Of a stretch of DNA of 39,545 bases, positions 1,483-16,524 are shown one piece after another. The position numbers and the translations under genes are program-made. The DNA lies in UHGV virus genome UHGV-0207529. The stretch is one strand, 5' to 3'. A model generated the notes under the pieces. It searched no databases, had not been told where the DNA came from, and saw nothing but the letters and a program-made list of their open reading frames with translations. Source of the DNA: a virus. Each line of letters starts with the position of its first letter. Positions within the stretch are counted from its first letter, which is position 1.

Positions 1483-1666
1483 GGTGGGATGCTAGGTCTC
1501 TATCGTTAAAATCAAGGCTGCTAATCATTTCATTGTAAATGGCGTTTTTATCTTCCATTGGCAGTCTTGAGTAAACCAGACACAGAGCATATTTCAGGGA
1601 GTTTAGCTCTTTCTCTAGCTCTTCCTTGCTTGACGTTTTTGACTTAATAAACTGTTTTTTATTCAT
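1457..1666 (-). CDS. Hypothetical protein co-transcribed downstream of mnt
   Basis: 69-aa ORF whose start overlaps the mnt stop (translational coupling). Confidence 0.4.
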   Translation of the reverse strand: MNKKQFIKSKTSSKEELEKELNSLKYALCLVYSRLPMEDKNAIYNEMISSLDFNDRDLASHLNSFRVPE

Positions 1667-1911
1667 TTTGCATCCTTACCATACATGGTCTTTAGCGTCT
1701 CAAGCAGCGCCTCTTTGAATTTGTCAGCTTCTTGCTGAGCAAATGACTCAACTGACTTTGGCGACCTATCTTCATCAATCGCGGCTTGCAAAATCATGAC
1801 GATCTCGGAGTTAACAGAGCGACCATTTTTTGATGCTCTGACAGCAAGAGCCTCGCGTAAAGATTCAGGGATTCTTACCGTAGTTGGAGAAATTGACACA
1901 CCCTTTGCCAT
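1663..1911 (-). CDS. mnt: Mnt-like ribbon-helix-helix repressor (immI)
   Basis: 82 aa; same length class and RHH pattern as P22 Mnt as I recall it (NGRSVNSEI...); divergent from arc. Confidence 0.8.
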   Translation of the reverse strand: MAKGVSISPTTVRIPESLREALAVRASKNGRSVNSEIVMILQAAIDEDRSPKSVESFAQQEADKFKEALLETLKTMYGKDAK

Positions 1912-2025
1912 ATCACACCTTTGGTATTCAATTTGATATCAAAGTGTATGCAAAAAAATTTTGACTAGATATACTCACTTTGCTATCTTTTGTATTCGAA
2001 AAGAGTTGTTTGTGTGGAGGGTAAC
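1912..2025. promoter_or_regulatory. immI divergent promoter/operator region between mnt and arc
   Basis: Intergenic between divergent RHH repressor genes; contains a perfect 12-bp palindrome tttgatatcaaa and a TTGACT -35-like hexamer. Confidence 0.4.
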
Positions 2026-2178
2026 ATGGAGAAAGAAATAAGTAAGATTTTGGTAAGGATGCCGCAGTCGTTAAAGGATGCTATCGGTAGCAGGGCAAAG
2101 GAAGAGTGCAGGTCGTTTAACTCAGAGGTTATCAAGCGCCTGATAGACAGCCTGAAGAGAGAGGGGGTGATGGTATGA
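2026..2178 (+). CDS. arc: Arc-like ribbon-helix-helix repressor (immI)
   Basis: 50 aa from internal ATG with GGAGGG SD; matches the P22 Arc pattern (MPQ...RSxNSE...EG). Confidence 0.8.
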   Translation: MEKEISKILVRMPQSLKDAIGSRAKEECRSFNSEVIKRLIDSLKREGVMV

Positions 2179-2378
2179 GTAAAGAATGTTGTTTCTGCGG
2201 CATTAGCGAATCAGACGCTGATCAAACATACATTTACTCTAAAGAAACAGGTCGGATGCTGTGTAGTGACTGCGTGTTGGACATCATAAGATACAAGCAT
2301 CTTGGATGTTCTGCCAGCATTAGCAATATAGGTGAAGTATACGAAGGGAAAGATATAACTGATAGAGCAGAAAGTTGA
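2175..2378 (+). CDS. Small Cys-rich (CCxC...CxxC) protein inserted between arc and ant
   Basis: 67-aa ORF overlapping the arc stop (ATGA); putative zinc-binding cysteines. Confidence 0.45.
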   Translation: MSKECCFCGISESDADQTYIYSKETGRMLCSDCVLDIIRYKHLGCSASISNIGEVYEGKDITDRAES

Positions 2379-2441
2379 AGCCCCAACTGCGGGAACAGTC
2401 AGGGCTTCGGTATCGTAAAACCACGCATAGGAATTAACGAC

Positions 2442-3365
2442 ATGAAAAGTATAGCAACAGCAGTATCTACTATCAATGTACCATTCCACGGCGCAGAGCT
2501 TTATGTTGTCAATCACAACGGCGAACCGTATACCCCAATGAAACCTATCGTTGAGGGAATGGGGCTAGACTGGAAATCTCAACATAAGAAGATTTCTCAA
2601 CGCTTCTCGAAGGGTATGGTGGAAATAACCATACCTTCTGCCGGTGGGGTGCAAGCCATGATTTGTATGGCTTTACGAAAATTGGCAGCTTGGTTGAACA
2701 GCATCAGTCCTAACAAAGTCCGCCCTGAAATCCGCGACAAGGTAATCCAGTATCAGGAAGAGTGTGACGATGTGCTATACGAGTACTGGACTAAAGGCCA
2801 TGTAGTTAACCCACGCAAAGCTAAAAAGGCGTTGCCGGGTAAAATCACCACTGAGCAGCAGAAAGCCATTAAACAACTCGTCATGAGTCGCGGTCAGTCT
2901 CTGCCAAAAGAAAAACAGGCTAAGGCGATGATCACCATGTGGTCGTCACTGAAATCTCATTTTGGGTGTTCATACAAAGAAATCAGTGAGGAGCAGTTTG
3001 CCGAAGCACTGTCACTTGCAGCTCGAGTTCCACTTGAAGGCGAGTTTATCGGCAAACAAGAGAAGAAAACCAACGAGCTTTCTGCAAAAGAAGCAAACAG
3101 CCTTGTATGGTTATGGGATTATGCCAACCGCTCACAGGCGTTATTCCGCGAACTGTATCCGGCATTAAAACAAATTCAATCGAACTATTCCGGCAGATGC
3201 TACGACTATGGTCATGAGTTCTCGTATGTTATCGGAATGGCGAGAGACGTTTTAATCAATCACACACGAGATGTTGATATCAATGAGCCAGACGGACCAA
3301 CGAATCTTTCCGCATGGATGAGACTTAAGAATAAAGAATTACCTCCTTCAGTACATAACTACTGA
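2442..3365 (+). CDS. ant: Antirepressor Ant
   Basis: 307 aa, immediately downstream of mnt/arc as in P22 immI; size matches P22 Ant (about 300 aa). Confidence 0.8.
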   Translation: MKSIATAVSTINVPFHGAELYVVNHNGEPYTPMKPIVEGMGLDWKSQHKKISQRFSKGMVEITIPSAGGVQAMICMALRKLAAWLNSISPNKVRPEIRDKVIQYQEECDDVLYEYWTKGHVVNPRKAKKALPGKITTEQQKAIKQLVMSRGQSLPKEKQAKAMITMWSSLKSHFGCSYKEISEEQFAEALSLAARVPLEGEFIGKQEKKTNELSAKEANSLVWLWDYANRSQALFRELYPALKQIQSNYSGRCYDYGHEFSYVIGMARDVLINHTRDVDINEPDGPTNLSAWMRLKNKELPPSVHNY

Positions 3366-3384
3366 CAGATAACCAACGCAACGA

Positions 3385-3407
3385 CCCAGCTTCGGCTGGG
3401 TTTTTTT
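3385..3407 (+). terminator. Rho-independent terminator after ant
   Basis: Hairpin cccagc-ttcg-gctggg followed by TTTTTTT. Confidence 0.65.
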
Positions 3408-3465
3408 ATGCCCAAAATTCACCGTGGCCATGCTGCGGCGATTTCTTGTATCTGGAGCAAATTAA

Positions 3466-5523
3466 ATGACAGACATTACAGCCAATGTTGTGGTAAGCAT
3501 GCCTTCGCAACTCTTCACTATGGCGCGTTCTTTTAAAGCCGTAGCTAATGGCAAAATTTATATCGGTAAAATTGACACTGACCCTGTAAATCCTGAAAAC
3601 CAGATTCAGGTTTATGTGGAAAACGAAGACTGTTCTCACGTTCCTGTTTCGCAACCAATCATCATTAACGCTGCTGGTTACCCTGTATATAACGGACAGA
3701 TTGCCAAATTCGTTACTGTACAGGGCCATTCTATGGCTGTTTATGATGCGTACGGTGTGCAGCAGTTCTATTTTCCGAATGTGCTGAAGTATGACCCGGA
3801 TCAGTTAAGACAAGAGTTAGCAACAGAGGGTAATGAAATACTTGTTGACGACTCCCGTATTGCAGTTAAAAGTGTTCATGTAAATTCAAAACTTAGAACA
3901 CAGCACAATAAAAACGCAGAAATAATCACGCCAAATGATTTTATATCAAATTATGACATGATATCTGCAGCTATTAACTCTGGAGAGAGTGCCGCAGTAT
4001 TTAATTCCAGGTATGCATTCACAATAACAGTTGGGGAATATGGTAATTTTAAATCTATTAGTGATGCTCTAAACTCAGCTGTTGCACTGCGTCCACTATG
4101 GAAAAATGGCATTGATTTTTGCATAATTAAAATTCTTTCCGGTTTTGTGCTCAATGAGCAAATAGAAATTTCAGCAGGATGTGACTTATCATGGATTAAA
4201 ATAATATCAGAAGACTCAGTGGTTTTCTCTGATACCAGTTTGTTTACTAAAACTGTTAGGACGTATTACGAATACAAATATTTATTTTACATTTGCGATG
4301 CAGCAAAAAGTCCTGTATTTGCTATTCAGATTGAAGAAAATAGAGATGATAGCGATGTTTGTGCATTTATTGTAACTCAAAAAGCTGAACTTAATTTCTA
4401 TCCGTATTCAGGTGCTCGAAAGTTCTACGTTGGAATTCATGGTAGCTTTGGTGCAAAAATTAGTGCATATCATACCGGATGTGCTCCTGATGAGGAAAGT
4501 GTTGCTGCATATATGCCAGAAGGGTATTACGTATGTGATTTTTCTTATAGCAGATACTCTTCCCTGCAACTGGTAAATAATGTCAAGGCATCAATGCCTG
4601 TAAGTAAGTTTGAACGGTGCACAGAGAGTACGGTTGCGTCAGTTAATTGTATTTATAATGTTAAAGCAGATTTTCAGGGGTCAAGTGCAAGCTATTGTTA
4701 TATAGGATGGAATGTAAGAGATGGTTCAAATGTTAATATACGCGACCATAAAACTATACATTGCTCATATCGTGGATTAACGTGCATTCATACAGCATAT
4801 GTTGATGCAAGACGACATGACGTTGAAGAAAGTGATGCAGAAACAAGTGGTAAAGTCCTTGAACCAAATATTGAAAAAGGTTTTTATGGATGTGCACTTG
4901 GTGTGCGTATTGATGGTGCGGGTTGTGTTGATGTTGCTGGTAATGATATGCGCAATTGTGGAACAGCCGTTAATGCAGACACTGGTGCTGTTATTTCCGG
5001 AAAGGCTGTAGATATCTCAGGGGTTGAGCTGGGATTTGATTGCCATGCAGGAGCATCTGTTAATTTTCCAAGGCTATGGGGTACAGATATAAAAAAATTA
5101 ATGCACCTCCAAGATGGTGTAAGGTTTAACTCTAATATTTGTCATGTATTTGGTGCAAATCCCACAAAAGATATTAGATGGATTGATGTAGAGAGATCTG
5201 AAGCTTCTTTTATGAATGCAACGCTGGATGCAGATTCAGGATTTATTGCTGACTGTGGTAGTAGGATAACCATTGAAGGAAGTAAAGTTAAAAACCAAAC
5301 AATAAGAAGTTTTTTTGGATCACATGTGGCTATAAATAATACTGTTGCTGACAGAACTTATTCAGATATAGCCGATGTTCCGCAGTTGACTATTAGTGGA
5401 GGATCTTTTATTTCTGCTACAGGATATTCTAATTCTGACTCCAGCCCTCTTAGGTTGAGCACAACACGAAATACACTTGGAGTTGGAGGAGCCATATTTT
5501 CAACCAATGGGGAAGTTTCATGA
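3466..5523 (+). CDS. Tailspike: P22 gp9-type N-terminal head-binding domain with a divergent receptor-binding domain
   Basis: N-terminus [34 protein letters not shown]...VLKYDPDQ matches the P22-family tailspike head-binding domain; the remaining ~570 aa are AT-rich and not P22-like. Confidence 0.9.
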
Positions 5524-15663: not shown

Positions 15664-16524
15664 ATGAGTAATCTTGCAACCGTAACACATTTAAGGCCTT
15701 CACAACGGCCTGTGGAGCGTCGTGTGGCAGAAGTTGAAGATGGTTATACCCGTCTTGCAAATGCCCTGTATGAAGAGCTTATCGGCGCAGATTTAACGAA
15801 AAATCAGAGCAAGGTTGCCCACGCCATATGCCGTAAAACATACGGCTACGGTAAAAAGATGGATCGCATCTCTGATAGTCAGTTAGCTCAAATTACCAGG
15901 CTGCCAAGACAGAAGGCAAACAAGGCCAAGAATGAGCTTATCGCGATGAAGGTTATCCTTCGCGAAGGTCAGCAAATCGGGCCTAACAAGAACATCGAGG
16001 AATGGCAAATAGAAGGGTGTCACTACTCTGGTGATAATGTCACTGCATTGGTGACAAAAAGTGTCACCAAAACGGTGACAGCGCTGTCACCAAAACAGGG
16101 ACACACAAAAGAAACTATTACAAAAGAAAAAAGAAATAATAAAAACACTATGTCCGAAAGTGTTCGGACGGAGTGTGAAAAATCATCTGACCGTCACGAA
16201 GAAACCGACAAGGCATTCGAGGAAATATTCTGGTGTGCAGGCATGCGGAAAGCCGGGAAGAAAAACGCGGCTTCGGCATTCAGAACACAGTTCAGGGAAT
16301 GGCGTAAAACTACCAGGGGTACGGCAAGCGAGTTTGCCACGATGCTGGCAGAAGACATCGCATGCAGGAATGGTAAGCAGTTCGGATTCGACAGGTTGTT
16401 ACCATCGAGCTACCTGAACGGTCAACGCTGGAACGACGAGAAGCCAGAAACTATTCAACCACAATCCAAACCATCATCCGCAATCACCGTATCGAAAACT
16501 GGCTACGTGTTTTTCGACAGGTGA
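15664..16524 (+). CDS. Replication initiator, lambda O-like
   Basis: N-terminal O-like domain ([14 protein letters not shown]...DLTKNQSKV...[17 protein letters not shown]); contains ori iterons. Confidence 0.8.
16039..16150. repeat. Origin of replication: three about 19-bp iterons plus AT-rich tract inside the O-like gene
   Basis: Tandem tgtcac...gtgaca dyad-containing repeats (TGTCACCAAAACGGTGACA type) followed by an A/T-rich stretch. Confidence 0.6.

Follow-up and report, generated by a model that had tools for sequence, protein, structure and literature searches.

The 39,545-nt viral genome UHGV-0207529 (the whole stretch analysed, referred to below as the window; positions count from its first nucleotide) contains a P22-type immI module in which an open reading frame (ORF) of 67 codons, ORF67 (2175-2378, + strand), lies between arc and the antirepressor gene ant. 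The sequence between arc and ant was best explained overall by the terminator of the known antisense RNA sar together with a genuine cargo gene, ORF67, the product of which would resemble the docking domain of ClpX; a probability of about 0.6 was assigned to this explanation. Very likely, ORF67 is a real gene encoding a zinc finger.

ORF67 as a gene coupled to arc

The ATG of ORF67 (2175-2177) overlapped the stop codon of arc (2176-2178) as ATGA, and GAGGGGGTGAT, a near-perfect Shine-Dalgarno sequence, was located within the last arc codons ahead of it. The encoded protein of 67 aa begins MSKECCFCGISESDADQTYIYSKETGRMLCSDCVLDIIRYKH and contains the Cys motifs C5-C6-F-C8 and C30-S-D-C33, which form the pattern of a CxxC-x21-CxxC zinc finger with a following helix (core at residues 5-42, 2187-2300, + strand, supported by an hhalign alignment to the ClpX zinc-binding-domain profile) and an acidic tail that is probably disordered. 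Between the upstream promoter Pant and ORF67, scans for promoter consensus sequences and terminators found no promoter, and beyond ORF67 they found no terminator on the + strand; the classical definition of a moron, with its own promoter and terminator, does not describe it. ORF67 is an operon-embedded cargo cassette, translationally coupled to arc, and not a classical moron. Judging by position, it should be read from the Pant transcript and hence be under Arc/Mnt control. A first-pass annotation, made from the DNA letters alone, had described a 67-aa ORF with CCxC and CxxC motifs and an ATGA overlap with arc, had called it extra relative to P22, and had suggested that it could be under Arc/Mnt control. 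The ORF coordinates and translation bore out the description, no gene was found at that place in P22, and the proposed control agrees with a location inside the Pant operon.

ORF67 matched phrog_7150 (function unknown) over its full length (E 3.4e-50, residues 1-67 to profile positions 1-67 of 67). The exact protein was present in GenBank as 'hypothetical protein' on at least 1000 contigs (e.g. AQX97568.1), and was 100% identical in CUS-3 and Escherichia coli NU14. Of 5426 complete E. coli genomes, 373 carried ORF67 DNA. Records at 99% identity or above (66) were taken as intact, only NU14 of these having been translated, and a further 308 records were at 95-99% identity, the sampled ones being almost all one 97.4% allele. 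In the single translated copy of this allele (from O157:H7 strain H6437), the ORF67 frame is lost through a 1-nt insertion within a T run. The H6437 copy belongs to a decayed mnt-arc-ORF67-sar-ant module (locus L003, 2016-3671), the arc of which has an internal stop codon, in a lambdoid prophage, between tail genes and near nleL. In strain Sakai the prophage with this module is Sp6. The ORF67 cassette was ~98-100% identical across arc backgrounds that were themselves only ~80% identical or less, which argues that the cassette moves as a unit.

In some records the gene has been passed over by annotation. In the CUS-3 record (CP000711; locus L001, 1357-1838), arc and ORF67 are both unannotated and the region is labelled 'bsq2 boundary sequence'; both genes are encoded by CUS-3. 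In RefSeq records annotated by the Prokaryotic Genome Annotation Pipeline (PGAP), arc was annotated and ORF67 skipped in every record examined, including that of NU14 (locus L005, 2386-2790), for which GenBank gives ORF67 as hypothetical protein B0908_13480. ORF67 is a widespread gene that the CUS-3 annotation and the examined RefSeq records both miss.

Three distant relatives were recovered: a 68-aa Salmonella protein, P0014, by exhaustive phmmer search of 1.8 billion representatives, P0019, likewise a Salmonella protein of 68 aa, by profile search, and a 63-aa E. coli protein by a census of loci (below). They were 26-37% identical to ORF67 and matched phrog_7150 positions 1-42 at ~5e-8. P0019 and the 63-aa protein occupied the same place between arc, sar and ant, with the 4-nt overlap with the arc stop codon and an end at the sar hairpin. 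Residues M1, C5, C6, F7, C8, G9, S22, K23, T25, C30, C33, I37 and E57 were invariant in the family. The comparison of related immI regions that the first-pass annotation had put forward as a check thus gave a conserved ORF67, with relatives in the same slot keeping all four Cys. For the finger region, in which three DNA sequences were compared, non-synonymous divergence (pN) was 0.42-0.46 and synonymous divergence (pS) 0.61-0.94.

P0014 was the sole real relative in the exhaustive search; the top phmmer matches were long TPR-repeat and Ig-repeat proteins, which were discarded as spurious, repeated matching to the low-complexity tail. Word-indexed protein searches returned near-identical clusters together with P0014 and P0019 and nothing further, the GTDB representative genomes contained no ORF67 relative, and IMG/VR contained the same subfamilies only. 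By length alone, an ORF of 67 codons is not beyond chance; ORF67 was taken to be more than a chance frame because of its coupling to arc, its conservation and its syntenic distant homologues.

The sar terminator and the cargo slot

The antisense RNA sar was identified at 2373-2440 on the - strand by Rfam RF00262 (84.6 bits against a gathering score of 43, E 2.4e-17, model positions 1-68 of 68). The 68-nt RNA of the - strand folded into a 5' stem-loop and a terminator hairpin (2377-2408) of 14 bp with a 4-nt loop and G.U pairs, at -28.3 kcal/mol and z = -4.75, and none of 200 shuffled sequences folded as stably. The + strand version of the hairpin had a weak, interrupted stem (z = -1.9), and a role for it as an attenuator was rejected, the T run being absent and the fold weak. 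The 5' end of sar (2440) lies one base ahead of the ant ATG at 2442. The RNA spans the interval between the ORF67 stop codon and the ant start, and is antisense to the region of the ant ribosome-binding site as well as to the final two codons of ORF67 with its stop. A candidate Psar, located by consensus match only (2448-2476, - strand; TTGATA-17-TATACT with TG ahead of the -10 hexamer; 10/12), was found within the first ant codons. Its -10 hexamer ends at 2448, and a start ~7 nt downstream coincides with the Rfam 5' end at 2440. In P22 (BK000583), Psar is in the same place, the same hairpin is annotated as the sar terminator, and the layout of sar is identical. By analogy with P22, sar would be an antisense RNA made leftward from Psar inside ant, and would cover the ant ribosome-binding site.

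The stem-loop that the first-pass annotation had placed before ant was thus real, being part of the sar element, which that annotation had raised as one option in the form of a sar-like element, and had been read on the wrong strand: a stem of only 7 bp with a long loop was seen because the G.U pairs of the - strand become C-A mismatches on the + strand. Its further claim that the stem-loop had been inserted together with the ORF did not hold. The hairpin is the ordinary sar terminator stem, already known, present also in P22 and nothing new, and hairpin and ORF67 are two separate things. The statement that ant directly follows arc in P22 was right, since in BK000583 the arc coding sequence ends 2 nt inside the sar 3' end and ant comes directly next.

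For a census of the interval between arc and sar, the sequence of the sar terminator served as the search pattern in a scan of IMG/VR; together with loci taken from genomes of E. coli and Salmonella, the hits made up 137 loci. In total 117 loci were scored, and 21 had no recognised arc motif or had the match too near the locus end. In 52 of the 117 scored loci, arc abutted the sar hairpin in a P22-like manner with a gap of 0-35 nt, and in the other 65 an ORF was present between arc and sar. These ORFs formed about nine cargo families: ORF67; its 68- and 63-aa relatives; a 60-aa ClpX finger; a 74-aa C4 protein; proteins of 57, 73 and 80 aa; and an 89-aa membrane/coiled-coil protein. Every intact cargo had its start exactly 4 nt upstream of the point where arc's stop codon ends (as ATGA or GTGA), and every cargo ended in AAA-NNN-TGA (or GAA-AGT-TGA) directly ahead of the hairpin. 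The bases of the cargo end (2370-2378 in the window; the equivalent 9-12 nt across the 137 loci) were complementary to the U-rich tail at the 3' end of the sar terminator, and are therefore under a dual coding and RNA constraint. The left boundary of the slot is the conserved C-terminus of arc, in which the Shine-Dalgarno sequence is embedded, and its right boundary is sar.

Further features of the slot were recorded. In protein terms, every cargo ORF finishes with Lys/Glu-x-stop (AAA CAG TGA, GAA AGT TGA and similar); P22 has the same AGTTGA after the stop codon of arc. At locus L009 (E. coli MLI104K2, 609-869), an arc-like frame, annotated as an 86-aa YlcI/YnfO family protein, runs through the sar hairpin to ant and probably represents a variant of the slot produced by fusion or deletion.

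Resemblance to the ClpX zinc-binding domain

A profile of the four family members was aligned to a profile of the ClpX zinc-binding domain with an hhalign probability of 89% (E 2.4e-6) over 41 columns that included all four Cys, both alignments being very shallow; for the control, an ORF of the window that has CxxC..CxxC but is unrelated, the probability was 5%. When the family profile was searched against 177,635 PDB sequences, one match was returned, residues 5-45 of ClpX of Neisseria meningitidis (6vfs, E 0.012). C5, C8, C30 and C33, which supply the four-Cys CxxC...CxxC pattern, were invariant in all four members, and P0019 carries the UniRef name 'ClpX-type ZB domain-containing protein'. 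The likeness to the ClpX N-terminal domain (PF06689 zf-C4_ClpX; 1OVX, 2DS5-2DS8) consists of C-x-F-C-G ... (I/L)-C-x-x-C-V followed by a helix. Unlike ClpX, ORF67 is free-standing, without an AAA+ module, and has its own SKxT motif and acidic tail.

The slot also holds a clearer example of the domain. A 60-aa cargo in other P22-like prophages of E. coli, annotated 'ClpX C4-type zinc finger protein' (WP_047668240.1 / WP_115194777.1), shares with ORF67 the slot, the ATGA overlap and the end at the sar hairpin. It matched PF06689 with 37.7 bits and 1OVX with an E of 3e-6, which marks it as a clear, bona fide ClpX-type zinc finger. Its size and Cys pattern are similar to those of ORF67, and a direct BLASTP comparison of the two was not significant (E 0.14). 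Both matched phrog_5259, ORF67 at 6.7e-5 and the 60-aa cargo at 1.1e-5. The 74-aa C4 cargo was not counted as a ClpX finger, having given a Pfam E of 0.0015 and an hhalign probability of 6% only. One allele of the 60-aa cargo, in E. coli NCCP12480 (locus L004, 2321-2503), differs from that at locus L008 (621-803) by Cys to Tyr at the first zinc ligand (KYSFCG vs KCSFCG), and may by its sequence be a non-zinc-binding variant.

Several results weigh against a ClpX-like reading of ORF67. The spacing between the Cys pairs is 21 residues in ORF67 and 18 in E. coli ClpX, the loop being 3 residues longer. Searches of ORF67 against Pfam (E <= 1) and NCBIfam (E <= 10) gave no ClpX finger match, and ORF67 by itself had no significant PDB match. 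The PF06689 threshold of 27 bits was not reached by P0014 (13.2 bits) or by the 63-aa relative (12.0 bits). The profiles were tiny, with effective sequence numbers (Neff) of ~2 for the family and ~1.5 for ClpX, and Cys-rich motifs inflate such scores. AlphaFold2 models, with short strands and then a helix at residues 31-42, had a predicted local distance difference test (pLDDT) score of 56 from the single sequence and 53 from three sequences, too uncertain to use. Foldseek returned nothing from the PDB at E <= 0.001, the matches being RING/PHD/ribosomal-type fingers only, at E > 0.2. Literature searches on phage ClpX-finger proteins gave nothing relevant, and no paper on ORF67 was found. About 300 complete genomes of enterohaemorrhagic E. 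coli (EHEC) carry the frameshifted copy (97.4% allele). The selection test within E. coli was uninformative, the diversity (five DNA alleles, with one synonymous and three non-synonymous variants) being too low to show selection. Finally, the slot also holds unrelated cargos, namely the membrane protein and other small proteins, and therefore position says nothing about a ClpX-related function. Weak sequence matches to RNF4 and RNF31 were dismissed as generic Cys-pattern matches.

With these points set against the profile evidence, the sequence comparison still leans towards shared homology between ORF67 and the ClpX domain. ORF67 is a probable remote homologue that may be called ClpX-domain-like, and not a demonstrated member of PF06689.

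Other accounts of ORF67 were weighed against this one. It could be a generic early accessory gene, active in anti-defence, superinfection exclusion or host takeover, that uses the finger as a scaffold against some other target. The slot does act as a swap site for diverse small cargos, the 89-aa membrane protein among them; the surrounding ant moron is highly variable and carries exclusion genes (PMC2629481); and in the window this moron carries a Panacea-domain pair, while an early burst from Pant would suit counter-defence. Set against these, ORF67 matched no defence or anti-defence model, so that the anti-defence role suggested at first pass received no support from PADLOC, and several independent cargo families in the slot are ClpX-finger-like (ORF67, the 68-/63-aa relatives, the 60-aa protein and, to a weak degree, the 74-aa protein), which points to a specific, recurring function more than to arbitrary cargo; the accessory role was considered unlikely. 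A slightly less probable account makes ORF67 a zinc-finger regulator of immI itself that would bind DNA, RNA or Ant with no ClpX connection, tuning ant translation or sar-ant pairing or serving as an anti-antirepressor. Such a regulator would fit a gene that shares a transcript with arc and ant, is coupled to arc in translation, and has its stop codon inside the sar terminator stem and last codons complementary to sar; nucleic-acid binding is frequent among small C4 fingers, and the similarity to ClpX falls under family thresholds. However, the overlap with sar is forced on every cargo by the terminator tail, and P22 and the 52 P22-like loci run immI with the slot empty and other loci with unrelated cargos, so the circuit does not need ORF67; moreover, the one specific similarity found for it, to the ClpX zinc-binding domain, concerns a domain that docks proteins.

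It was judged very improbable that ORF67 is filler without a function, an open frame arisen by chance in the mosaic boundary sequence that separates arc from sar. Its absence from the annotation of CUS-3 (bsq2) and of the RefSeq PGAP records examined, the frameshifted EHEC copies and the almost complete lack of within-species variation for a selection test would be consistent with filler. Against it, homologues that are 26-37% identical have retained the frame, along with the start overlap, the four Cys, the SKxT motif and the slot, pN is below pS, the Shine-Dalgarno sequence is strong and the ATGA coupling exact, and the frameshifted copies belong to a decayed module where arc is broken too.

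For the preferred reading, a genuine cargo gene with a ClpX-docking-domain-like product, a mechanism can be outlined. ClpX's zinc-binding domain is dimeric, and adaptors docking there include SspB and RssB. It serves adaptors as a shared site of docking and is also bound by lambda O and MuA (PMC7804408). The Pant promoter of P22 is active on infection or derepression, is turned off by Arc and is held off by Mnt in lysogens (PMC12111858). If P22 biology applies, the firing of Pant upon infection or derepression would yield a brief early pulse of ORF67, which would be ended by Arc and by Mnt. As a free copy of the docking domain, ORF67 might then compete for ClpX partners or pair with ClpX's own domain, and either route would shift the set of proteins degraded by ClpXP early in infection. 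A lambda-O-type initiator (Phage_rep_O) is encoded at 15664-16524 in the window and would be a candidate beneficiary.

That ORF67 modulates ClpXP in this way is a tentative proposal, drawn by analogy. The wider version is, if anything, slightly more doubtful: P22-like phages would repeatedly load the slot with mimics of the ClpX docking domain (ORF67, the 68-/63-aa relatives and the 60-aa finger), which, produced within the first minutes of infection, would act as ClpX N-domain decoys or poison subunits under the Arc/Mnt timer by which Pant is controlled in P22. If true, the mimics would protect N-domain-dependent ClpXP substrates, such as the lambda-O-type initiator, or block adaptor delivery, and would amount to a phage-encoded modulator of ClpXP specificity. 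The several independent ClpX-docking-like cargos suggest that temperate phages may tune host ClpXP specificity at infection. To our knowledge, few phage-encoded ClpXP modulators are known; ORF67 would represent a new class of modulator if the ClpXP role is true, and otherwise an ordinary small accessory gene.

The immI module and comparison with known systems

The window is a mosaic P22-like (Lederbergvirus-type) E. coli phage or prophage, and the records closest to it were vB_EcoP-720R6, CUS-3 and phiv205-1. Its mnt, arc and ant genes, all three with Pfam matches, have the order and orientation found in P22 and lie upstream of the tailspike gene. The mnt-like repressor gene (1663-1911, - strand, 82 aa; Pfam Arc E 1e-10, FitA-like ribbon-helix-helix 2e-8) is divergent from arc and positioned as P22 mnt. 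It is followed on the + strand by a Pant-like sigma-70 promoter (1961-1989; TTGACT-17-TATCTT with TG ahead of the -10 hexamer; consensus scan 9/12), the sole +-strand promoter-like site in the scan of 1600-3500, which by analogy with P22 Pant (PMC12111858) presumably works as Pant. Next come arc (2026-2178, + strand, 50 aa; Pfam Arc E 4.4e-12), identical or similar genes to which are called Arc family by PGAP, then ORF67 and sar, and the antirepressor gene ant (2442-3365, + strand, 307 aa; Pfam P22_AR_N 1e-44, P22_AR_C 6e-30). An intrinsic terminator with an 8-bp GC-rich stem and a T run (3383-3402, + strand) closes the arc-ORF67-ant operon in the same place as the P22 ant terminator, and is followed by the tailspike gene with its P22 head-binding domain (Head_binding, 3466-5523).

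Other elements of the region were recorded as follows. Between mnt and the -35 hexamer of Pant is a near-palindrome of 18+18 nt (1920-1955, centre at TTTGATATCAAA, 78% complementary), a candidate operator with a sequence unlike those of the P22 Omnt and Oarc operators. A SocA/Panacea antitoxin-domain protein is encoded at 31-480 on the + strand (PF13274, E 2e-24), and a 140-aa partner starts 5 nt after it (486-908, + strand; phrog_8366; weak PADLOC NsnC-like match, 1.8e-7), with a hairpin terminator at 910-932. By sequence, the two look like a PanA-type toxin-antitoxin or defence pair within the ant moron, and the pair is also present in E. coli NCCP12480. A second 67-aa Cys-rich ORF (952-1155, - strand) has an N-terminal hydrophobic segment and a CxxC...CxxC pattern, with weak zinc-ribbon matches only; it is the control ORF used above (hhalign 5%) and is unrelated to ORF67.

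Downstream of mnt lies a 69-aa ORF (1457-1666, - strand) that overlaps the mnt stop codon by 4 nt and matches phrog_16466 and no Pfam family. In related E. coli and Salmonella prophages, the position after mnt is taken by a 178-aa ClpP-like gene (PF00574, E 1e-11). The ClpP-like gene was found in 18 of 41 cargo-bearing and 7 of 53 cargo-less loci, counts that are not phylogenetically independent. As a supporting link to ClpX it was rejected, being not specific to zinc-finger cargos and absent from the window.

For the P22 immI region, PMC2629481 cites Sauer et al. (1983) and Liao et al. (1987). With P22 immI (BK000583) the window shares the divergent mnt, the Pant-like promoter, arc, sar on the opposite strand with a terminator hairpin adjoining the stop codon upstream of it, Psar in ant, ant itself, the terminator and the tailspike gene. 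The Arc and Mnt sequences of the window are divergent from those of P22, and whereas the arc stop codon of P22 is 6 nt ahead of the sar hairpin, here a 200-nt ORF67 cassette lies between them.

The ant moron has been described as a region of high genetic flux between gene 16 and the tailspike gene, sixteen genomes having shown ten types of moron (Villafane et al. 2008, PMC2629481). The same study gave CUS-3 as apparently lacking arc, a claim that arose because of the annotation gap noted above. Its subject was variation of whole morons, and an arc-to-sar slot with a fixed 4-nt coupling and ClpX-finger-like cargos is not described there. On its sequence, ORF67 is best filed as a new, divergent, free-standing and uncharacterised ClpX-finger-like phage protein. 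The classic immI circuit is thus seen to contain a precisely bounded, translationally coupled cargo slot, the 3' boundary of which is set by the tail of the sar terminator.

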